Of a stretch of DNA of 64,000 nt, positions 4,181 to 54,153 are shown piece after piece. Each line of letters starts with the position of its first letter. Position 1 is the stretch's first letter. The position numbers were made by a program, and so were the translations under genes. Below the pieces are notes generated by a model. That model did no database searches, was not told where the DNA came from, and saw only the letters and a program-made list of their open reading frames with translations. Origin of the DNA: Eledone cirrhosa (taxonomy: Eukaryota). Location: assembly GCA_964016885.1 (NCBI GenBank), contig OZ024741.1, positions 148,366,001-148,430,000 on the forward strand, read 5' to 3'.

Positions 4181-4527
4181 TGGCACGAAACCAGCAAGGG
4201 TAGAGCATTGTATGTTTGTATTCCCTTTGTCCATTATTATAGTTTTACCTGCAATCGTCTTGAGGTTTGATGCCTTCCTTAACTTGTAAGATTGATTTTC
4301 AATTTGGGACGGCCTGTCGTTATGGACGACGCCTATTTTCATTTGATTGTTTATTTTTTCATTAAAAGAAAACAAAAAACTGATCACTGTCCGCTTGTAA
4401 TGCAATCTGTTGTTTATTCATTTCTTTCCCTTTAAAGGTTTGTCATTAGACACGATCATGCTGGAGCATTATCTCCAGGGGATTTAGTTGATCATACCGA
4501 CCCAAGTAATTTTATTTTATTTTTTTA

Positions 4528-4559
<32 letters not shown>

Positions 4560-5676
4560 ACTGGACATAAACAGACGCATCGCTTGTCATCTTCAGTCTG
4601 TGTACCAAATTACACACCTAATTTGCATGACCGTGTCTTAGTTTGTCCCATAACAAGCGGTTTAATGAAAAACGTCGATGAATAAGTATCGTACTTCGAA
4701 AAAAGTATTGGTAGATTTGAATCGACTAAAATCGTTTAAAGGTAGTACCCCAGTATGGCCGCAGACTTATGACTGAAATCATTAAAAGAATAAAAACTAA
4801 ATTTAAGGAAGATACAGTTCTAATTGATTTATGTAATTAATTAATTACACAAATCATTTGATGACGGCAAGTGCTGCTTTGTACATTTTCTAGATTAATC
4901 TAAAGTAGTGGTGGTAGTGTTATAAGTGGGGGTGATGATGGAGTACACGACTTGCGGCGACATGGTTCTATATTTCAGTGTAAGTAATCTGGTTTCTTAC
5001 ACCATCGGAGAAAGAGGTGGAGCTACTTACTCAGGAAGTTTCTAATTTTAGTGTCAGACTGAATACTTTTCATGCCATAGAATAAAATAAAATAAAAAAA
5101 TTGGGATGGCAACAACTTAGCTTAGTAGAATAGCTCGATGTCGAGAAAGGATAGGAGTAACTGCTGACTGAATCGTAGGGATGCCATCTTGGCATGACTT
5201 AGTGAAGATCAGGCCTGTGCGCAGCCAATTTCTTCCATAGGGGGGAGAAAGAGATATAGAGGAATCGACTCCAGTATTTAACGTACTTCTCCAACCCCGA
5301 CAAGATAAAAAGCAGAGTTAATCACGCTGGGATTTGAACGCAAAATGTCGGAACGAATACCGTAAAGCATTCTGCCCGACGTTCTAACGGCTCTGCCTAT
5401 TCGCCGACTGGAGGTCTCTCTAAAGTTGGTAAATCTCGACTAGCTGGAGGTGGGCTCACTGTGCAAGCATTGGACGCACAAGGCGAGAGCACCATCAAGA
5501 GAATTGCTATAAAACTAGTCCCTCATAATTGAGAATGTCTTGGTAGTGTGTATCCTGCTGCCACGGACCACCTGTACCGTTGATATCGTGTGACAATTGG
5601 AAAGGGAAGAGGGTTGATCAGAGTGCAGGGAGCCGAAACGAATATCGAACGTTTTTACGAAACTTTGAAGTCACTG

Positions 5677-15784: not shown

Positions 15785-18700
15785 ATGCGTCGAATGACCA
15801 AGAGACCTGCTTGGTGGAACGACTATGTTACAACCGGTCAGCCTTCGACCTCTCATTCTCCACCAACTTCGGCATGCACGAGAGGAGCTAACTTGTCCCC
15901 ACCTACCCCTCCTCCTCTTCACCTCAGATGCCAAGCGAATTCAACCGGGCCAACCCCACCACCCCTACAACTGTTAGCCCACCACCCAATCTCCACTCTA
16001 GTTCCACTGTTAGAACCACTGTTGCCTCCTTTACAGACCGTATTCCAATGCTGGCTCTCTACTGCCGGCTGATGCCAGCCCACCACCTGATTGCGCTCTC
16101 TGTACCCGCACTAGCCGGTACTTAAAGACAATTAAATGTCGCTTATGCCACGCAAGCTACCACAGAAGCTGTGTCGGCATCACCAAAGCTCAAGCCGAAA
16201 GGCTTCAATACTGGACCTGTAATCGGTGACACTTCAGCTCCGACGTATCCCTAGGGGATGCCCCACGCTTCGATGACCAACTCTCTACCAAGGACTTTAC
16301 CACAGCCCTCAAGGCCTTCTCCAAATCAAAGCTCGTTAACCAGATCCCTAAGGGAGCTCGGAATAACTTTGCATGTACCCTCTCTAATTTATTGAAAAAT
16401 GTTTACTCGTCCAACAATAGGTCTGACTGGCAGAAATTGTTTTTGTTTCCTCTCATCTCTCTTCACGTGCACAATGCAAATTCGTGTTCCCTCGCGTCCT
16501 CTCCCAAGCGGCAGTTCCAGTTGTTTGAGTCTACCCCAACCACGTTTCACCTCATTTCGACATCGAGCCCGGTGTCCACCAACAGACAACCGATAGACCT
16601 GAAGCAAGCGGTCAATGCCATATTCAGCGAATTTTACATTAAAGGGGCTGTCCATCCCCTCTCTTCTTTGTTCTCCCTCGCTCCGTGCAACTCTGATTCT
16701 CTTGAGCGTCTGAAAGAGAAGCACCCATTGGCACCCAGATGATCAGCTACACTGGCCCGAACCACCAGAATACTCGAGACCAGTTTACACCGCCGATATC
16801 ATCAGAAAGGCGATTTCATCCTTCCCCGCTGGATCAGGCGTGGGAATTGACGACCTTCGTCCTCAACACCTCAAGGATGGTATCTCCTTATCGGCCAGTG
16901 GCGCCGGACTCGAGCTCTTGGTGAATCTGACTCAGTTTGTGAATCAGTTCTCTTCAGTGAATGTTTTCCCGTTCATTCACCCACTGTTCTTCGGTGCGAA
17001 GCTATTTGGTCTCACCAAGCCCAACGGAGACCTGCACCCCATTGCGGTTGGCTGCACCCTTTTCCGCCTCACTGCACCCTTTGCCGCCTCACTGCAAAGG
17101 TGTGTTTGCTGTTGGCCTCCCTCCGACTCACTGGCGGAGGAATTTTCCCCCATCCAGCTGGGGGTGGGTACCAAGTTGGGATGTGAAGCTGCTGTCCACA
17201 CTACCAGAGCTTTTACCAACTTGCCCTCCTCGTCCCCCAACCTCATCCTCAAACTTGACCTCAGGAACGCTTTTAACGCAGTCAGCCGCGACGTCGTCCT
17301 TGGCTCAGTAAGAGAGAGGGTCCCACAACTCTATCACTTTGCTTGGCAGGCTTATCGGGAGCCCTCCTACCTCTCTTTCGGTGACCAAATCATCACCCAC
17401 GCAGCAGGCCCACTGTTTGCACTGGGCATTGATGACGTCACCAAGATGGAGGTTGAGTTGGACCTCAATGTCTGGTACCTCAACGACACTTGTTTGGGGG
17501 GAACTCTGGATATGGTTCTCGCCACTGCCAACAAGATGGTTGAGGAGCTTGGCCGCCGGGGTCTCCAGGTCAATAGCTCTAAATGTGAGCTCTGGATCCT
17601 CAACCATCTGGCTTCTCAACACCAACAGCTAATCGACCTGTTTGCAGAGTCCTTCCCTTCCATCGCGGTCCCTCCCCCGTCGGCTTGGTGCTCCTTAGGA
17701 GCCCCAATCACAGACCTTGCCTTCGAGTCAATCTTCCAATCGAAGATGGTTGGCCTTGAGCAGCTGCTGAAGAATATTGAAGTTATCGAACCCCATCAAG
17801 GTTTCTTCATACTCAGGAACTAGCTTTCTATTCCTAAGCTCCTGTATCTGCTCAGGGTCAGCCCCTCTCACAGATTTCCGTCCTGCCTCCAACGCTTCGA
17901 TGACTTAAACTTTGAGAGACTCGAGTGCCTGGTCAATGTTAGACTCTCTCCAGAGTCCTGTGATCAGGCTGCGTTGCCCAAGCGATTTGGGGATCTTGGT
18001 CTTCATATGTGTTTGTTCCTCTCTCTCCCCTCCTTCCTTTCCTCCACCCATGCTTGCTCCACCCTGGTGAGCAGCATCCTCTCCTCTCCAACATGGACTA
18101 GTTCCAACAGGGAGTTGGGTGAAGCTCTCCAGCAATGGAGTGAGTTGGCCTTGTCTCTTCCTGAAAAGGTGGAGGACAGTCGAAGTCAGAGAACTTGGGA
18201 CAGCATAAGTTCGAAGGCCACCTTTGACTCCCTCTTCGTCCAGTCACATCAGTTTTCAGGATGCCGCTTACTATCTGCCAGTGCCAAATACTCAGGTGAC
18301 TGGGTTGATGCCCTACCCGTGGCCAATGTTGGTGGCCTACTCAGCCTGGACGAACTTCATGTCTCCATCGCCCTCAGAGTGGGAGCTGACGTCTGCATGG
18401 GTTTGAGGTGCCGATGTGGCAAACTCCTCGAATCCACAGGCCTCCACGGTCTTTCTTGCCGCCTGAATGCCAGCCACTTCTTGCGTCACATGGAGCTAAA
18501 CCTCATTCTGAAGAGAGCTTTGGCACGGGCGAACATCGCCTCAATCTTAGAACCATCTGGGTTGTCCAGAACTGACGGCAAAAACCTGATGGCCTTACTC
18601 TGTGCCCCTGGTCGAGAGGCCGGTGCCTTGTCTGGGATGTCACTGTTAGTGACTCTTTTGCCTTTTCCCACTTCCTGGATGCTGTGGTTAGGACGAGAGC

Positions 18701-18956
18701 CACAGCTTCCACAGCCGAGCGGAGTAAGACTCTCAAATACTGTGACCTGTCGGCCAGCTATATTTTTCAGCCTGTGGCTTTCGAGACGTTTGGGGGAGTC
18801 AGGCCGCTCACTGCAAGGTTCTTCTCTTCACTGGCGGCTCGCCTAATAGAGGTAACTGGCGAATCTCACGAGTGCGCTTGGTTGTTCCAGCGCATCAGCA
18901 TCGCCCTCACCCGAGGCAACACTGCGAGTGTGCTGGCTTGCCTCAAAAATCATTAG
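15785..18956 (+). mobile_element. Near full-length CRE-clade non-LTR retrotransposon (PHD finger - RT - zinc knuckle - RLE), disrupted
   Basis: One ancestral ORF broken by stops and frameshifts. PHD at 16092-16229; IPKGAR...W.KLFLF; RT motifs LRPQHLKD, PIAVG, QLGVG, LKLDLRNAFN, VWYLND; CRCG..GLHGLSC...RH.ELN; RTDGK(R)PDG..WDVT; E.SK..KY; PVAFETFG; WLFQRISIALTRGN. Probable 5' UTR from ~15400. Confidence 0.9.
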
Positions 18957-19615: not shown

Positions 19616-19958
19616 AAAATTAGAATTGGTGCTCTGAAATAGCGATATATATATGAATGTATGTATAGTGTATTTTGCAATACACTGTATGCTTAATTAA
19701 AAGCATTTTGAAGACCATACGCTATTGTTTTAAAATGGTGACAATGTCACTTATTTAAATTTTCAGCAAACAGGGGAGATAAACTGACAGAGCTCTGTTT
19801 CGTACTTTTTGGTACTTATCAAAGTTCACTACTCCTGTTCGCTAAAAATTATGTGTGTTGGATTCTTATAGAATTCCAGTAATAATCAGGAACTGATTAT
19901 ACAGAACGGTCGCCAGTCCAGCAGAAATTGAAAATTAGAATTTGTGCTCTGAAATAGC
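19616..19958 (-). mobile_element. ~315-bp hammerhead-containing element with 28-bp terminal redundancy (retrozyme / Penelope pLTR-like)
   Basis: aaaattagaatt(g/t)gtgctctgaaatagc occurs at 19616 and 19931 (period 315). The element contains the hammerhead at 19760-19847 and is homologous to 52643-53617. Confidence 0.75.
19760..19847 (-). ncRNA. Type I hammerhead ribozyme, variant core UUGAUAA (U3-A8), GUC cleavage triplet
   Basis: Minus strand: tgaact-TTGATAA-gtac caaaaa gtac-GAAA-cagagctctg-TC-agttta. Stem I continues ttttagcgaacagg...cctgtttgctgaaaa. All three helices pair. Confidence 0.8.
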
Positions 19959-20137: not shown

Positions 20138-21420
20138 TCATCATCATCATCTTCATCATCGTTTAACGTCCATCTTCCACGCTTGCATAGGTTTGGACGG
20201 GAGGTTTCCCACTTGAGGCAAGATTTGTTGTCCTGCTCATATAGGACTGTCTGGCGGGTTTTCTACGGCTGGATGCCCTTCCTAACACCAACCACGTTTA
20301 CAGTGTGGACTGGGAAATTTTTACCGTGTTACCTACACGGCCACATTACAGCATGGACTGTGTTTTTTTTTGTTGTGACACCTACACGACCTCATTTGTT
20401 TCGGACTGGATGTTGTGGTACCAACATAACTTCACATTTAAGGGGGTGGTGTGGATGGGGTGGGGTCTATTTTGTTAGAGGTGCCTACTGACTGTAGGTT
20501 TCGCTTTGTACATAGGCAAGGCGGGTCTTCTGTATGACTGTGTAGCGCCAAAGATCTCGGTCCAGTGACATTGTCTTGGAGAGGTGTAAGTGTGTGAGGT
20601 CGGAATTTATCAAGTCATCCCAGGTTTTTCTGGGTCTGCCTACTCCTTGGCTACCGTCTATTTTTATCGCCCTGCATTTTTTTATACAGCTGTCGTCTTT
20701 CATGCGCATCATGTGACCGTACCAACGTAGTCTTCTCTCGAGTAAACAACATCTGATCCCTCTTATTCCTAATTTCTCCCTTAGTTCGTTTATGCTTTGC
20801 CGTTCACGTATATTATTACATATCCAGCGGAGCATGCAAGCTTCGTTTCTCTCCAGTCTGCGTATATCCTCTGCACACAATGCCCAGGTCTCACTGCCAT
20901 GTAACATTGCTGTTCGTATGCAGGCATCATACAGCCTGCCTTTCATTTTTAGAGAGAACCACTTGCTGCTACTTATTGCACCAGAGCACCGGCCACATAT
21001 AAAATCTATATTCTTAGTTAGCTTACCTGTGAGCCCACTACATCTTTTATGCACCCATACTTTGCATTTGGGACATAAAATGGAGTTTCTGCCTACTCCT
21101 TTCCTACACACTGAGCATGGCCATTTCCCAGATGGGACCGGTGCCCTATTTTCCTTCCTACAAACTAGAACTTTATTCTTAGACAAGTTAACTTTAAGGC
21201 CTTTTGATTCTAGGCCATGCTTCCATGTTTGGAATTTCTTCTCTAGTTCAGCCATTGATTCAGCTATGAGCGTTAGATCATCTGCATATAGGAGTTCTCA
21301 TGGGCAGCCGGTTTTGAACTCCTCTGTTATAGCCTGAAGGGCAATAATAAATAGTAGGGGGCTAAGAATGGAGCCCTGATGAACACCAACTTTTACGCTA
21401 AACTCTTCACTATATTCGTT
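20138..21420 (-). mobile_element. RTE-PHD LINE copy A (5'-truncated, in-frame internal deletion, 3' UTR with (GAT)n tail in (TA)n)
   Basis: ORF 20485-21255 is highly similar to 25721-27394 and includes LLYADD and the PHD. Tail catcatcatc abuts (TA)n at ~20138. Confidence 0.92.
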
Positions 21421-23460
21421 GTGAAGATTGGTTGTCTTGCTCAGGACTGTCTGGTGGGTTTTCTACGGCTGGATACCCTTCCTAACACCAACCACGTTTA
21501 CAGTGTGGACTGGGAGGTTTTTACCGTGTTACCAACACGGCCACATTACAGCATGGACTGTGTGTTTTATTGTCGTGACACCTACACGTCTGGCGAGTTT
21601 TCTACGGCTGGGTGCCCTTCCCAACACCAACCACGTTTATAGTGTGTACTGGGAGGTTTTTACCGTGTTACCTACATAGCCACATTACAGCGTGGACTGT
21701 GTGTTTTATTGTCGTGACACCTACACGTCTGGCGGGTTTTCTACGGCTGGGTACCCTTCCCAACACCAACCATGTTTATAGTGTGTACTGGGAGGTTTTT
21801 ACCGTGTTACCTACACGGCCACATTACAGCGTGGACTGTGTGTTTTTTTGTCGTGACACCTACACGACCTCATTTGTTTCGGACTGGATGTTGTGGTACC
21901 AACATAACTTCACAATTAAGGGGGTGGTGTGGATGGGGTGGGGGTAGTGGTATGGGGGTCTATTTTGTTAGAGGTGTCTACTGACTGTAGGTTTCGCTTT
22001 GTACTTAGGCAAAGCGAGTCTTCTGTATAACTGTGTAGCGCCAAAGATCTCGGTCCAGTGACATTGTCTTGGAGAGGTGTAAGTGTGTGAGGTCGGAATT
22101 TATCAAGTCGTCCCAGGTTTTTCTGGGTCTGCCTACTCCGTGGCTACCGTCTATTTTTATCGCCCTGCACTTTTTTTTTTTTTTTTTTTATACAGCTGTC
22201 GTCTTTCATGCGCATCACGTGACCGTACCAACATAGTCTTCTCTCGAGTAAACAACATCTGATCCCTCTTATTCCTAATTTCTCCCTTAGTTCGTTTATG
22301 CTTTGCCGTTCACGTATATTACTATTACACATCCAGCGGAGCATGCAAGCTTCGTTTCTCTCCAGTCTGCATATATCCTCTGCACACAATGCCCAGGTCT
22401 CACTGCCATGTAACATTGCTGTTCGTATGCAGGCATCATACAGCCTGCCTTTCATTTTTTTCATCCCGTTCTGACTCTAGCTACTGTACTTTCAGAGCAC
22501 CCTCCCCCACTGCTGATTTTGTCACCCAGGTAATGGAAGCTGTCCACTATTTCTATAGAACCATCTGTGCAATGGAATGAGCTAGTATTCTGTGGACACT
22601 TGCTGCTACTTATTGCACCAGAGCACCGGCCACATATAAAATCTATATTCTTAGTTAGCTTACCTGTGATCCCACTACATCTTTTATGCACCCATACTTT
22701 GCATTTGGGACATAAAATGGAGTTTCTGCCTACTCTTTTCCTACACACTGAGCATGGCCATTTCCCAGATGGGACCGGTGCCCTATTTTCCTTCCTACAA
22801 ACTAGAACTTTAGTCTTAGACAAGTTAACTTTAAGGCCTTTTGATTCTAGGCCATGCTTCCGTGTTTGGAATTTCTTCTCTAGTTCAGCCATTGATTCAG
22901 CTATGAGCGTTAGATCATCTGCGTATAGGAGTTCCCATGGGCAGCCAGTCTTGAACTCCTCTGTTATAGCCTGAAGGGCAATAATAAATAGTAGGGTGCT
23001 AAGGACGGAGCCCTGATGAACACCAACTTTTAAGCTAAACTATTCACTATCTTCGTTGTTAATTCTAACCTTGCTGACTGTTTCTTTATACATGGCTTGT
23101 ATAGCTCTCACAAGCCATTCATCAACACCTAGTTTTCTAAGCGCCCACCAGATAATGGAGCAGGGGACTCTGTCAAAGGCTTTCTCCAAGTCAACAAAAG
23201 CTAAGTATAAGGGTTTACTTTTAGCTAGGTACTTCTCTTGTAGTTGTCATACAATGAAAAGAGCGTCTGTGGTACTTTTACCTGACACAAACCCGAACTG
23301 CATTTCATCTAGATCAATTCGTTCTCTGATTAGTTGCGCTATTACTTTTTCTGTGACCTTCATGACCTGGTCGATTAATTTAATGCCTCTATAGTTACCC
23401 CTATCAAGAGCATCTCCTTTACCCTTGTAGCAGTTAATGATGATGCTGCTACGCCAGTCC
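21421..23460 (-). mobile_element. RTE-PHD LINE copy B (5'-truncated, disrupted; 3' UTR has three ~139-bp tandem units)
   Basis: DWRSSIIINCYKGKGDALDRGNYRGIKL...QFGF, RT and PHD motifs. UTR units start near 21454, 21593 and 21731. The 5' end abuts (TA)n at 23461. Confidence 0.92.
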
Positions 23461-23516
23461 TTATATATATATATATGTATGTATATATATATGTGTGTGT
23501 GTATATAATGTGTGTA

Positions 23517-23569
<53 letters not shown>

Positions 23570-24295
23570 GGAATGCACCTGAGCCTGTGTTTGTGTGTGT
23601 GTGCTTGCAACGATGTGCATTGATATACACACATATGTACTTTATGCCGAAATAGGAACTGTAGTCCTTTGCATTTCCGGATTTTGACACTCAGGTTTTT
23701 GGTGTTTTACACTCCACTTTTATCTCGTTTGCTCTTAAAACGCACCACTCGATGATAGTGTAAGAATTGTAACTCTTTACACTTCTCGATTCTGACACAC
23801 AGGTTTTTTTACTTCAGTTAATATTTTTCAAATCTTTCAAATTTTGATATTGGTTGTAACACACATGCATTTTTTATTTTTTCTTTGTTTGGCACCCCAA
23901 CCATGTGAATTGGTGGCAGGATAGATGCCAACACAGACACACAAATTCTTCTGAACATAGCAGCAGCACACTAAAGCTGACCTGCCAGCTGACCCCTTTA
24001 CACCACTACCGCTACCAACACAATGGAGGAGCTCAGCTGTACTTAAACAAAAACTACTACAACAGATTGTCTTGCCTCAGAAAAATTTCTATAGACTTTT
24101 GACTGAGGAATGTTCTCACAACTGACCAATGGGATGCGAGCGTGTCCTATGATGCTGAAATTCGTTTGCTCTAACTCATATGATTCCAGTTCATAAGAGA
24201 AATAACAACACTACCAGGAGCTGGATATATCGATGGATTGACGGTGTAAAACACACTTCAACAACATGTGTACCTGTCTTTCCCACACCAATTCG

Positions 24296-24351
24296 GACTG
24301 CCTGAAGAAGTCACAGCCAATGATGGCTGTCACCGAAATATATATAACAGT
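24296..24351 (+). ncRNA. Minimal type I hammerhead motif, canonical-type core CUGAAGA
   Basis: actg c-CTGAAGA-ag tc acagcca atga tggctgt ca cc-GAAA-tatata-TA-a cagt. 7-bp perfect stem II, palindromic stem III, 4-bp stem I. Confidence 0.62.
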
Positions 24352-24541
24352 ATATCTATAATTTGTAATAACCGCAGCCAAATTTTACATATTTGACTTA
24401 ATTATTTTATATATATATATATATATTTGTACTTGATTCGCTTGAATTTGCATTCCTTATTGAGATGAAGTTCCAAGATTATTATTTTAAACTGATGATT
24501 TTTTGTTACTTTTCTGTCTGTTCCAGCCAGTCTCCATATTC

Positions 24542-24634
24542 ATGACTGAAGAAAACATGGCAGTTAAAACTAAAGAGATACTCGTCAATAAGAAATTCAT
24601 TTTTGAAAAAAAGAAAAAAAAGGAAAAAAAGCAA
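24542..24634 (+). CDS. MYCBPAP: MYCBPAP candidate first coding exon
   Basis: Acceptor ttccag just upstream. ATG...MTEENMAVKTKEILVNKKFIFEKKKKKEKKQ|gtatta, phase 0 and compatible with 29807. No recognisable homology, so based on splice signals only. Confidence 0.45.
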
Positions 24635-24738
24635 GTATTAACTTATTTTGTAAAACCTAACTTAAGATTGTTGACTGATTTCGATTTTTCCATCATTAAC
24701 TTGTAACAGTTTACAATGGTTTTTGTAATAATTCAGTT

Positions 24739-24950
24739 TTAACCAATTAGCATTTAAACCAGCTGCATCCGGCCAGAATTCTCTCACCTCTCTTTGTTCA
24801 AACCGGCCGTAACTGGTTGCTCATACTGATGTTAAGGTATTGTTCTCAAAATAAATAATATCAAAATCTCATAGATTCGATATTATGTGAGATAGATTCG
24901 ATATTATGTGAGATAAAGCCTTTATCATGAAAATATAATAGTAAATGTAG
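24739..24950 (+). mobile_element. piggyBac-type MITE, right end missing
   Basis: Body matches the TTAA-flanked family at 30711, 32394, 34497, 41859, 42230 and 60285. Confidence 0.75.
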
Positions 24951-25252
24951 TTGGTTGTCTATTTATTTCTAGTCCTAATATTTTTGTGTACTTATCTTTG
25001 TTTTTGTTAAAAGACACTTCTAAATTTTGTGTTATCGTCTCACATTGTCTCACATTAACAGAGCGGTTCTCCAATCTGTGGTGCAAATTGGTGTTACAAG
25101 TACAATACCCCTTAATGAACAAAATTGCATGGAAGTATGATGGTGATGAGGTGGAGATGCAGTTGTCTGTTCATATTTTATTTAACTGTTTTTCTGTGTG
25201 CATTTTTTGCTGATATGCTGATTATACATACATACATACATATATATATATA

Positions 25253-25553
25253 TCATCATCATCATCATCATTTTACGCCTGCTTTTCCCTGCTTGCAAGG
25301 GTGGGGCGGGAACTGATTCTGGCTTGATTTCTACAGCTGGATGCCCTTCCTAACACCAACCTCATTTACAGTGAGTGCTGGGTGCTTTTTTTCCATGGCT
25401 CCTCCACGGCCACTTTGCAGTGGAATGATATGGACCCCAGTCCCTATCATCTCATTTCTACAGCTGAGTAAACTGGAGCAATGCGAAATAAAGTGTCTTG
25501 CTCAAGGAAACAACACATCACCCGGTCTGAGAATTGAACTCATAACCTTTCGA
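25253..25553 (-). mobile_element. tRNA-derived SINE with RTE-type (GAT)n tail, head truncated
   Basis: Reverse complement of the 52972-53300 family; (TA)n on both sides. Confidence 0.8.
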
Positions 25554-25624
25554 TATATATATATATATATATATAGGAGGCACATGGCTCAAGCAAACTT
25601 CAATACTCTCATATATATATATAG

Positions 25625-27743
25625 GTAGCTTGGAAGTGTCACTATGAAAGGCTACTAAATGAGGAGAATAAATGGGAGAAAGACAGTCTCCCCCTTATCG
25701 ACCCGATAGAGGGACCAGCAGTGTTAGTCGAGGGGAGTATAATAAGTAAGGCAATCAAGGATACGAAGACTGGTAAGGCGGCTGGGCCTTCAGAAATAGT
25801 TGCTGAGATGCTGAAGGCATCTGGCACGGTGGGACACACCATGGTCACCCGCATAGTTAACCAAGTCGTACAGAATGGGGTTGTTCCAAAGGACTGGCAT
25901 AGCAGCATCATCGTTAACTGTTATAAGGGTAAAGGAGACGCGCTAGATAGGAGTAACAATAGAGGCATTAAATTAATCGACCAGGTCATGAAGGTCACGG
26001 AAAAAGTAATAGCGCAACTAATCAGAGAGAGAATTGATCTAGATGAAATGCAGTTCGGGTTTGTGTCAGGCAAAAGCACCACAGACGCTCTTTTCATAGT
26101 ACGACAACTACAGGAGAAGTACCTAGCTAAAGGTAAACCCCTCTACTTAGCTTTTGTCGACCTGGAGAAAGCCTTCGACAGAGTCCCCCGCTCCATTATC
26201 TGGTGGGCTCTTAGAAAACTAGGCGTTGACGAATGGCTTGTGAGGGCTATACAAGCCATGTATAAAGAAACAGTCAGCAAGGTTAGAATTAACAACGAAT
26301 ATAGTGAAGAGTTTAGCGTAAAAGTTGGCGTCCATCAGGGCTCTGTTCTCAGCCCCCTACTATTTATTATTGCCCTTCAGGCTATAACAGAGGAGTTCAA
26401 GACAGGCTGCCCATGGGAACTCCTATACGCAGACGACCTGACACTCATAGCGGAATCAATGGCCGAGCTAGAGAAGAAATTCCAAACATGGAAGCACGGC
26501 CTAGAGTCAAAAGGACTTAAAATTAACCTGGCTAAGACCAAAGTTCTAGTTTGTAGGAAAGAAAACAAGGCGGCGGTCCCTTCTGGGAAATGGTCGTGCT
26601 CGGTATGTAGGAAAGGCGTAGGTAGAAACTCCATCTTATGTCCTAAATGCAAAGTATGGGTGCATAAAAGATGTAGTGGGATCACAGGTAAGCTAACTAA
26701 GAACATAGACTTTACATGTGGCCGGTGTTCTGGTGCAATAAGTAGCAGCAAGTGCCCACAAAATACTAGCTCTTTCAATTGCGCAGAGGGTTCTATAGAA
26801 ATAGTGGACAGCTTCCGTTACCTGGGCGATAAAATCAGCAGTGGGGGAGGGTGCTCTGAAAGTACTGTAGCTAGAGTCAGAACTGGTTGGAAAAAGTTCA
26901 GAGAGCTTATACCACTATTAGCTGCTAAAGGGTTCTCCCTAAAAATGAAAGGCAGGTTGTACGATGCCTGCATACGAACAGCAATGTTGCATGGTAGTGA
27001 GACCTGGGCATTGTGTGCAGAGGATATACGCAGACTAGAGAGGAACGAAGCTTGCATGCTCCGCTGGATGTGTAACAGTAATATACGTGAACGGCAAAGC
27101 ATAAACGAACTAAGGAAAAAATTAGAGATAAGAGGGATCAGATGTTGTTTACTCGAGAGAAGGCTGCGTTGGTATGGACACGTGATGCGCATGAAAGTCG
27201 ATAGCTATATTACAAAGTGCAGGGCAATAAAGATAGACGGTAGCCACGGAATAGGCAGACCTAGAAAAACATGGGATGAGCTGATAAACTCCGACCTCAC
27301 ACACTTACACCTCTCCAAGACAATGTCACTGGACCGTGACCTTTGGCGGTACTCAGTAACAGAGAAGACCCGCCTTGCCAGTAGGCATCTCTAACAAAAT
27401 ACACCCCTCCCGCCGCCACCCCCACCCCATCCACACCACCCCGTTCTATGTAAAGTTATGTTGGTGCCGCGCCATCCAGGCCGAAACAAACGAGATCGTG
27501 TAGGTGTCACGACAAAAAAACACACAGTCCACGCTGTAATGTGGCCGTGTAGGCAACACGGTAAAAACCTCCCAGACCCACACTGTAAATGTGGTTGGTG
27601 TTAGGAAGGGCATCCAACTGTAGAAAACCTGCCAGACAGTCCTATGCGAGCAAGACAATCACTCTTGCCTCAAGTGGGACTACCCCCGTCCAAACCCATG
27701 CAAGCGTGGAACACGGACGTTAAACGTTGATGATGATGATGAT
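25625..27743 (+). mobile_element. RTE-clade LINE with PHD finger inside RT; 5'-truncated but uninterrupted frame (young copy)
   Basis: Open frame 25625-27394: YKGKGD...RGIKL, QFGF, FVDLEKAFDRV, GVHQGSVLSPLLF, LLYADD, C4HC3 insert, FRYLG, MLHGSETW, RRLRWYGHVMR, GRPRKTW. 3' UTR ends in (GAT)n; (TA)n on both flanks. Confidence 0.95.
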
Positions 27744-45994: not shown

Positions 45995-46211
45995 TTATAA
46001 AAACACTTTGGTTCCCGAATCTATTGAATATGGAAGTCTCATATCTGGTCCAGCTTTGGTAGTCAATGGGCACAAAGTGAAATGGCAACCAGAAAACGAA
46101 GATAAAGCAATAGATTTCATGTTTTATTTTGAATCAGCTCTTGGAGAGACAGACAAATCTTCTTTGTTTGTTCAGAACAATGGCTCCACAGCTATATTTT
46201 ATAAGTGGAAG
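45995..46211 (+). CDS. MYCBPAP: MYCBPAP exon (MYCBPAP domain)
   Basis: GPALVVNGHKVKW...FMFYFESALGETDKSSLFVQNNGSTAIFYKWK matches GP.L...G....W...L.FE...GE...S.L.V.NNGT.AI.Y.W. Confidence 0.92.
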
Positions 46212-52397: not shown

Positions 52398-52810
52398 TAT
52401 ATATTTACATTAGAAGTGGCACTAACATACTGTGATTTGTAATAGGGATGTGTATGAAAGCATATATAATATATTTATGCATAATAAACATACAAGAGCC
52501 TCGCTATGATTTTTCTTCTTTTTTTAAAACTGTGATCATGTCACAGTATCTCAGTAGGGGTGAGAATTCCAAGATCACAGATGAAAAAAAAAAATTCATA
52601 GTGAAATCTTGTATGTTTATTATAGATCAACATATCATATATGAAAATTAGAATTGGTGCTCTGAAATAGCGATATATATATGAATGTATATATAGTGTA
52701 TTTTGCAATACACTGTATGCTTAATTAAAAGCATTTCGAAGACCTTATGCTATTGTTTTAGAGTAGTGACAGTCTCACTTACTTTAATTTTCAGCAAACA
52801 GGGGAGATAA

Positions 52811-52854
52811 AGCTGACAAAGCTCTGTTTCGCATTTTCTTATGCTTATCAAAGC
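52811..52854 (-). ncRNA. Type I hammerhead, variant core UUGAUAA
   Basis: Minus strand: gct-TTGATAA-gcat aagaaa atgc-GAAA-cagagctttg-TC-agc. Distal stem I is cut off by the rearrangement. Confidence 0.75.
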
Positions 52855-52971
52855 ATTTCGAAGACCTTATGCTATTGTTTTAGAGTAAAACAATAGCATA
52901 AGATCTTCAAAATGCTTTTAATTAAGCATACAGTGTATTGCAAAATACACTATATATACATTCATATATAT

Positions 52972-53300
52972 GGAGGCACATGGCTTAGTGGTTAGAGCAT
53001 TGGCCTTGCAATCGAAAGGTTGTGAGTTCAAGATGTGTTGTTTCCTTGAGCAAGGCACTTTATTTCACATTGCTCCAGTTTACTCAGCTGTAGAAATGAG
53101 ATGATAGGGACTGGGGTCCATATCATTCCACTGTAGAGTGGTCGTGGAGGTGCCACGGCAAAAAAGCACCCATCACTCACTGTAAATGAGGTTGGTGTTA
53201 GGAAGGGCATCCAGCTGTAGAAATCAAGCCAGACTCAGTTCCCGTCCAACCCTTGCAAGCAGGGAAAAGTGGACGTAAAATGAAATGATGATGATGATGA
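52972..53300 (+). mobile_element. tRNA-derived SINE with RTE-PHD-type 3' tail
   Basis: A box tggcttagtgg, anticodon-like cttgcaa and B box gagttcaa. The 3' part gttggtgttaggaagggcatccagctgtagaaa...ggacgtaaaa(tga)n matches the LINE 3' UTR at 27590-27743. Confidence 0.85.
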
Positions 53301-53415
53301 TATATCGCTATTTCAGAGCACCAATTCTAATTTTCAATTTCTGCTTGACCAGCAACCGCTCTGTATAATCACTTCCTGATTATTACTAGAAGTCTATAAG
53401 AATCAAACATTCATG

Positions 53416-53510
53416 ATTTTCAGCAAACAGGAGGAGTAGTTAGATTTGATAAACATCAAAAAATGCAAAACAGAGCTCTGTCAGCTTTATCTCCCCTGTT
53501 TGCTGAAAAT
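53416..53510 (+). ncRNA. Inactivated copy of the variant hammerhead
   Basis: TTGATAA-acat caaaaa atgc-AAAA-cagagctctg-TC. G12 is lost and the stem II closing pair is broken, but a perfect 16-bp distal stem I remains (attttcagcaaacagg/cctgtttgctgaaaat). Confidence 0.65.
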
Positions 53511-54153
53511 TAAAGTAAGTGAGACTGTCACTACTCTAAAACAATAGCATAAGGTCTTCAAAATGCTTTTAATTAAGCATACAGTGTATTGCAAAATACA
53601 CTATATATACATTCATATCATATATGCTTTTATATACACCTTTATTATACATACACATATATATGTAATATGTATATATATATATATATATATGATGATG
53701 ATGATAGGGTGTCCCATAAAATGTATACACACTGATTACCTGTACAGGCAATATTTATTGGAATACTGTTGAAGTATGTATACATTTTTAGGGGACACCA
53801 TGTGTATATATATATAAGTAAGGCACTTCTGTAGTTTCTGTCTACTAAATTTCATTCACATTGGTCAGTTTGAGACTATAGCAGAAGACACTTTCCTGCA
53901 GTGTTACCCAGTGAGACTGAACCTAAAACTGTGTGGTTGTAAAGCAAACCCCTTAACCACACAACTATGTCTGTGCCTGTATATGAAAATAATTTACAAA
54001 ACCATAATCCCTTCCATTTATGATATATAAATGTAAGAAAGATAACAAATAATGAGGCAAATCAACCTGTTTTTTTCTTTGTTTTTTGTTTGTATGTGTG
54101 AGGAGTTTTGCTGACACTGACTCAGCATCTCTTTCCATATTGTTCTCATTCAG

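Follow-up and report, generated by a model that had tools for sequence, protein, structure and literature searches.

A dispersed 315-bp hammerhead ribozyme family in Eledone cirrhosa, a likely non-LTR retrozyme with Penelope-type insertion marks

Introduction

Non-LTR retrozymes span about 170–400 nt, and circular forms of them are expressed in coral, mussel and axolotl (PMC7229834). A 2026 preprint (10.64898/2026.07.22.740005) links these elements to, and derives them from, the pseudo-LTRs of Penelope elements, and reports cleavage in one of nine predicted Xenopus dimers and none in the other eight. Tail, inversion and microsatellite features have been described for Penelope-like elements, and the same report includes Naiad elements that spread without canonical hammerheads (PMC8557442). 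In vitro, two initiation sites make a tail, unprocessed RNA is the main substrate and ribozyme cleavage is unnecessary for insertion (PMC11167929).

The consensus of the hammerhead core (PMC7151607) and the cleavage of hammerhead dimers (reviewed in PMC6765202) are well described. Natural hammerheads in which the tertiary pair of positions 3 and 8 is U3-A8 have been reported along with earlier in vitro activity (PMC3088659), and about 1,300 U3-A8 motifs come from Penelope-like elements of Schistosoma (PMC4209133). The U3-A8 core, called non-canonical in the first-pass annotation of the locus studied here, is thus a published natural variant, known from Penelope-like elements among others.

The locus lies in a 64,000-nucleotide stretch of the Eledone cirrhosa genome (GCA_964016885.1, contig OZ024741.1, positions 148,366,001–148,430,000), hereafter the window, and belongs to a large dispersed family. 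No description of this family was found in the literature searched, including the papers found on hammerhead ribozymes in octopus, and supplements, Dfam or Repbase could already list it; in the main text of a 2026 repeat annotation of Octopus vulgaris (PMC13282606) the word "ribozyme" does not occur. The family appears to be new; neither the ribozyme nor the element is of a new kind.

Results

Structure of the window copy and its hammerhead

The copy consists of a single unit and a tail (Table 1), and its terminal redundancy was correctly described in the first-pass annotation: the two 28-bp repeats are identical at 27 positions and lie 315 bp apart. No ORF longer than 46 codons was found on either strand of the unit and tail.

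The complete type I hammerhead claimed for the minus strand was recovered as both the minimum-energy and the centroid fold of 19755–19850 (−31.6 kcal/mol, z −5.68, 0/200 shuffles), and its three-way junction is kept when the whole unit is folded (z −6.19, 0/100 shuffles), with pair probabilities of 0.60–0.97 for stems I–III in the linear and circular unit alike. Stem I pairs 19828–19823 with 19785–19780 and leads into the core TTGATAA; stem II (GTAC/GTAC) closes its loop and is followed by GAA and stem III. The distal helix measures 17 bp in the computed fold, not about 14 bp as first estimated. Every part of the type I consensus is present: three stems, the core, G12-A13-A14, A15.1-U16.1, H17 and a junction open at stem I. 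Cleavage after GUC is predicted at the place originally proposed. When two copies of the ribozyme region are folded together, they form a dimer via stem III that lies 16.5 kcal/mol lower than a pair of monomers. Owing to the long helix, the opposite strand of the 96-nt region folds well too (z −3.92); it lacks the catalytic core.

The Rfam family Hammerhead_HH9 comprises conserved single-copy motifs of amniotes. Its model (RF02275) aligned in full (77 positions) to the window ribozyme, and its stem II loop and stem I internal loop agree; the score of 22.5 bits is weak and below the gathering threshold of 52 (E 0.46 in the whole window, 0.0014 in 201 bases). Hammerhead_1 (RF00163) gave no match to this ribozyme. 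Rfam microRNA matches were discarded as low-complexity or inversion hairpins scoring below gathering.

Table 1. Positions of the element copies and ribozyme parts, numbered from the first base of the window except for locus L091 (last line).
Feature	Position	Strand	Basis or remark
Solo insertion, subfamily A1	19616..19958	−	315-bp unit + 28-bp tail
3' tail, repeat of the unit's first 28 bases	19616..19643	−	Adjoins short TA run; Penelope-type
Unit's first 28 bases, 5' copy of the terminal redundancy	19931..19958	−	27 of 28 identical to tail
Type I hammerhead, extended stem I + 17-bp distal helix	19758..19850	−	Predicted fold, Rfam alignment
Catalytic core, positions 3–9, UUGAUAA (U3 19822, A8 19817)	19816..19822	−	Sequence
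Stem II, 4 bp, loop CAAAAA as in Rfam HH9 consensus	19802..19815	−	Fold
Palindromic stem III	19787..19798	−	Fold: 4 bp + 4-nt loop (monomer), 12 intermolecular pairs (dimer)
Predicted cleavage site after GUC (C17 = 19786)	19785..19786	−	Hammerhead consensus
Second insertion, subfamily A2, 5'-truncated	52644..52853	−	Unit 135–343 with tail; most of stem I missing
Inversion junction + inverted partial pieces of second insertion	52840..52971		Unit 227–271 minus, 227–312 plus
Inverted full-length copy of second insertion	53300..53625	+	Unit 309–343 then 1–314, without tail
U3-A8 minimal hammerheads in L091	9931 and 4952	−	Element of an RT + GIY-YIG family

Further copies and unrelated features of the window

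Positions 52644–53625 form one inverted insertion, in which an unrelated repeat (about 52972–53300) separates the inverted full-length copy from the rest. The homologous copy at 52811–52854 had been credited with three compensatory changes in stem II and with intact pairing. The three compensatory changes are there: stem II has two of them and stem I the third. An inversion truncates this copy 3 bases upstream of the core, its stem III contains a G-U, and it shows no hammerhead fold (z −1.65). A third window copy (53307–53625, +) had been overlooked: it retains the core UUGAUAA and is damaged by G12A and G10.1A.

An exon-like segment with AG/GT ends lies at 45997–46210 (+) and matches Pfam MYCBPAP (E 9.5e-9); a homologue search with this exon returned no match. 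If both insertions are intronic in this gene, the intact ribozyme would be in antisense orientation to it, and the copy in sense orientation (53307–53625) would be the one with the G12A change, a single case. Decayed ORFs of unrelated non-LTR retrotransposons occupy 16714–18956 and 20485–27394, one of them with RT and PHD-finger matches.

A large dispersed family with several subfamilies

Searching the 3.0-Gb genome with the unit, as the first-pass annotation had suggested, yielded 2393 candidates, and the 40 that were scored gave near-full-length matches at 92–96% identity. The 40-base A1 core has 238 exact matches, and two degenerate core patterns in which positions 3 and 8 were left free have 884 (A1/B1) and 662 (C/D); reversed controls gave 0 in all three cases. 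The 1,546 exact matches to the two core patterns are a lower bound, subfamilies A2 and B2 being left out. Sister subfamilies were reached by stepping out from divergent copies, and at least eight share the same short unit. The core reads TTGATAA in A1, A2 and D, CTGAGGA in B and CTGATGA in C; in C1 and D, pair 10.1-11.1 is mismatched and stem III is short. Head-to-tail arrays with at least two direct ribozyme copies occur in 11 of 139 loci, one of which holds six.

It had been proposed that CUGANGA pattern searches would miss the family. This applies to the U3-A8 subfamilies; large canonical CUGANGA subfamilies exist, through which such a search would find the family. An Rfam scan (E ≤ 0.05) of seven loci of either core type missed the family ribozyme in all seven, so the U3-A8 state alone does not explain the Rfam miss.

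Opposite core states are found within single insertion clusters at two loci: subfamily B followed by A in tandem (L016, 1180–1817) and subfamilies C and D in inverted orientation (L162, 1597–2095). These mixed clusters suggest insertion into earlier copies or template switching.

Insertion marks of Penelope type

The tails of the family are 24–29 bp long; those of Penelope elements are usually given as 30–40 bp. Terminal tails adjoin a TA alternation of at least 6 bases in 82 of 103 cases, against 8.6% at random places, and at a further 133 junctions the tail is followed directly by the beginning of that 315-bp unit. The 3' ends of pieces pile up at unit positions 340–343 and 314 and the 5' ends scatter; an inverted piece is present in 67 of 139 loci. 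The family thus shows the arrangement expected of Penelope-type insertion, namely partial tandems tailed at one end and accompanied by a 5'-truncated copy in inverted orientation, and its marks correspond to those described in PMC8557442 and PMC11167929. Taken together, the fixed 3' tail, (TA)n targets, scattered 5' ends and inverted pieces bear out the original claim of a mobile non-coding hammerhead family of retrozyme/Penelope type.

The 5' ends do not pile up at the cut site: 9 of 178 lie near it. The same holds for 30 loci picked by their 3' end alone, where 5' ends again scatter, two lie near the cut and 17 copies span the whole ribozyme. Cleaved linear RNA was therefore rejected as the template; the distribution points to tandem RNA that was left uncut or to a circle that had been re-joined, and gives no visible sign of a cleaved linear monomer, as in PMC11167929, where unprocessed RNA was likewise the main substrate.

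Autonomous Penelope-like elements in the same genome

A survey for GIY-YIG motifs returned 10,596 candidates, of which 150 were scored and 44 loci examined. Five scanned ORFs contain an RT, four of them with a GIY-YIG match, and the CX2-5CxxC linker of Neptune/Nematis is present in five of six tested ORFs, this motif being the sole ground for the Neptune-type assignment. Downstream of the ORF in 24 of the 44 loci, which represent three related families, lies a minimal hammerhead with U3-A8; in 8 of the 24 loci, comprising one whole family, GCAA replaces GAAA, which is possibly a dead or variant core. The hammerhead of a fourth autonomous family has C3-G8 (5 loci). In L091 a U3-A8 motif stands on both sides of a 938-aa frame, and such elements end in (TA)n. 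The hammerheads of the three U3-A8 families (3' regions of L031–L059, L091, L094, L095, L098, L100 and L102) have a palindromic helix III CCGG and UA at the end of the cut triplet.

No sequence common to the unit and the autonomous elements was detected by BLAST, profile HMM or covariance model in these 44 of 10,596 candidates, where the unit turned up solely as separate insertions, so we infer a helper rather than name one. The L091 element, 4 kb from one family copy, was rejected as parent since its pseudo-LTR is different. GIY-YIG motifs occur near 6 of 175 element loci; the nearby ORFs were likewise set aside as parents, the element being a separate insertion across a (TA)n tract from the ORF side in the five loci inspected and in L032. 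The first-pass annotation had called for a check of linked Penelope ORFs, and no RT + GIY-YIG ORF was found in the unit or linked to it in the window; the RT-type ORFs at 16714–17823 and 25625–27394 have no GIY-YIG match, are unattached to the element and were dismissed as partners.

Two further hammerhead-like sequences were noted. An unrelated canonical type I hammerhead (L143, 2053–2097, −; Rfam Hammerhead_1, 31.7 bits, E 0.0002) adjoins (TA)n and is embedded in sequence with ends similar to the 3' terminus of the L091-type element, and represents a further hammerhead family. Another short repeat with inverted ends, located between TA tracts (L095, about 4400–4850, and L040, about 1035, +), harbours a hammerhead-like CTGAAGA motif whose stem II has 6 bp.

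Covariation and the 3-8 pair

For the covariation test proposed at the outset, 60 copies, 15 each from A, A2, B and C (D was not included), were drawn from 163 untruncated ribozyme regions after 15 truncated or unparsed matches had been dropped. Changes on both sides occur at 15 of 33 pairs, and 94.1% of cells are paired compared with 42–51% in slid controls. The covariation score was 0.314 (0/500 shuffles; slid controls 0.06–0.11), and the number of further pair types lay below that of all shuffles. These counts are of sequences, not events; scores of this sort are raised by relatedness, and conversion can make the two arms of a hairpin change together. Between subfamilies, covariation is seen in stem I, in stem II, where all four pairs change on both sides, in the distal helix and at the 3-8 pair.

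Because it lies outside any stem, the 3-8 pair is the better test of covariation. The 145 loci used here supplied 162 distinct units of nearly full length; 91 carry U3-A8, 65 C3-G8 and 6 another state, a Watson-Crick pair in 156 of 162, with the ratio of U-A to C-G set by the queries used and not by genome composition. The first 100 matches listed for the A1/B1 pattern comprise 86 U-A, 9 C-G and 5 others; the first 100 for the C/D pattern comprise 81 C-G, 7 U-A, 6 U-G and 6 others. Mismatched states are scattered single copies and do not form subfamilies. In the source elements, the 3-8 position thus appears to have to stay a Watson-Crick pair, and the structural covariation looked for was found with this pair included.

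A tree built from 219 columns outside the ribozyme core requires two 3-8 changes: A and A2 are nested within B, and the U3-A8 subfamily D groups with C. A single U3-A8 clade was rejected (p-AU 0.0003, 45 sampled rows). With the root placed at the midpoint only, the direction from C-G to U-A is taken from the nesting, and on these grounds at least two switches of the pair from C-G to U-A are likely within the family. A transfer of a few bases between subfamilies could also have supplied the 3-8 state, but A and D do not have the same stems II and III.

Private substitutions hit the nine core positions (31/1456) about as often as the rest of the unit (721/28437), so constraint acts on source elements and not on inserted copies. 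The nine core letters vary at 0 of 9 positions across eight subfamilies, against 32 of 176 outside, a difference that is not significant alone (p about 0.16). The family had been described as selected. That description fits the differences between source lineages; judged by their substitutions, single genomic copies, the window copy included, decay neutrally.

Discussion

We consider it likely that the window copy represents a 315-bp non-coding hammerhead family which is copied in trans by Penelope machinery and is best classed as a non-LTR retrozyme. Sequence, copy structure, targets, covariation and the presence of RT + GIY-YIG elements were observed; to these the likely cycle adds, by inference, transcription, cleavage, circle formation and a mobilising protein. 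Tandem source loci would be transcribed on the hammerhead strand, and the ribozymes, as monomers or as dimers joined by the palindromic stem III, would cut after GUC and so set free RNA of unit length, which may then form circles. The window copy, being a solo unit, could not by itself release unit-length RNA through two cuts. A Neptune-type Penelope protein with RT and GIY-YIG endonuclease would nick a (TA)n tract, and cDNA would start at one of two sites 26–29 nt apart (unit 314 and 340–343), which would create the tail. Copying would pass the uncut or re-joined ribozyme and stop at no fixed point, in many cases adding a second piece in inverted orientation, after which the inserted copies would decay neutrally.

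More speculatively, and with little confidence in the combination, U3-A8 may be favoured genome-wide in this lineage and the retrozyme may have been captured through the RNA structure of its tail, without sequence shared with the helper. Bearing on the first part are the two origins of U3-A8 in the family and its occurrence in three of the four autonomous Neptune-type families with a detected hammerhead; U3-A8 would be favoured because it tunes cleavage such that uncut template survives for the Penelope RT.

It is improbable, in our judgement, that the fold is vestigial, with Penelope machinery spreading a repeat that does no cutting and with the covariation reflecting shared ancestry and conversion of hairpin arms. 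Such a history would sit comfortably with the neutral decay of copies, the damaged cores of 36 of the 162 units, the lack of a 5'-end pile-up at the cut site, the broken 10.1-11.1 pair of C1 and D and the spread of Naiad elements without canonical hammerheads (PMC8557442). It has difficulty with the joint change of positions 3 and 8 in two separate lineages: these positions lie five bases apart and in no stem, so arm conversion cannot explain it. Nor does it account for both-sided changes at all four stem II pairs or for the confinement of mismatched 3-8 states to scattered single copies.

We give a small chance to the copies being 5'-truncated ends, that is, solo pseudo-LTRs, of an unsampled autonomous Penelope-like element. 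The same 315-bp unit follows the tail in the 133 junctions, arrays of up to six ribozyme-bearing units run head to tail, the short unit is conserved in eight subfamilies or more, and GIY-YIG motifs are near few loci, where those inspected are separate insertions; all of this speaks against truncated ends. Truncated autonomous copies would nevertheless leave the same tail, inversion and target marks, the preprint derives retrozymes from pseudo-LTRs (10.64898/2026.07.22.740005), and the GIY-YIG sites were examined in part (44 of 10,596 candidates). Satellite- or MITE-like amplification at the DNA level, with the hammerhead likeness incidental to a palindrome, is highly improbable. The well-folded opposite strand and the common inverted structures would suit it, but the copies are polar, with a fixed 3' end, 5' ends that scatter, a tail and TA targets, which already goes far towards refuting it; the complete catalytic core lies on one strand only, and positions 3 and 8 covary.

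Such a family matters in several respects. A large, retrozyme-like family with a direct Penelope insertion signature supports the open proposal that Penelope-like proteins move animal retrozymes. It also offers a natural experiment on the 3-8 tertiary pair, with sister subfamilies about 88% alike that differ by the double change; as this change likely arose at least twice, the natural surroundings of the core allow a comparison of rates between C3-G8 and U3-A8. That one family has changed a tertiary pair repeatedly, and that U3-A8 is prevalent in the autonomous elements of the genome, are of interest in themselves. Hammerhead annotation of this genome by descriptors with a fixed CUGANGA, or by the present Rfam models, gives too low a count.

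Comparison with known systems

The family shows every sequence-level feature of a non-LTR retrozyme and of a non-autonomous Penelope-like element that was checked, except an end shared with a partner, of which the 44 GIY-YIG loci examined gave no instance. With the published non-LTR retrozymes (PMC7229834; 10.64898/2026.07.22.740005) it has in common a non-coding, low-G+C unit whose 315 bp fall within their size range, one type I hammerhead of canonical architecture with a 4-bp stem II and loop CAAAAA, an occurrence as monomers, dimers and multimers in thousands of copies, and autonomous Penelope-like elements in the same genome. At least two complete hammerheads head to tail are found in the family, the window copy being a monomer. 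It differs in that U3-A8 is present in more than half of the sampled units, stem III has 4 bp in subfamilies A and B as opposed to 1–2 bp, and the insertions are mostly dispersed, solo or inverted, with an explicit tail and (TA)n targets. Unlike 24 of 57 Xenopus families, the family has no sequence link to a sampled autonomous element.

MRC1 of Chlamydomonas (PMC8557442) is similarly short and non-coding, has pseudo-LTRs and head-to-tail insertions and is moved by Penelope machinery. Elements of the MRC1 type have no canonical hammerheads, and their 3' sequence is generally also that of an autonomous partner, for which no counterpart was found here in the 44 GIY-YIG loci examined. The pseudo-LTR hammerheads of Cercyon from Schistosoma mansoni (PMC4209133) resemble the family in their U3-A8 core, palindromic helix III and Penelope-type insertion structure. 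Those hammerheads are minimal, with a long helix II and a loop 1 that is ill-defined, and are in or from protein-coding elements, in contrast to the canonical stems, long distal helix and non-coding unit described here, where both core states can be followed on one tree.
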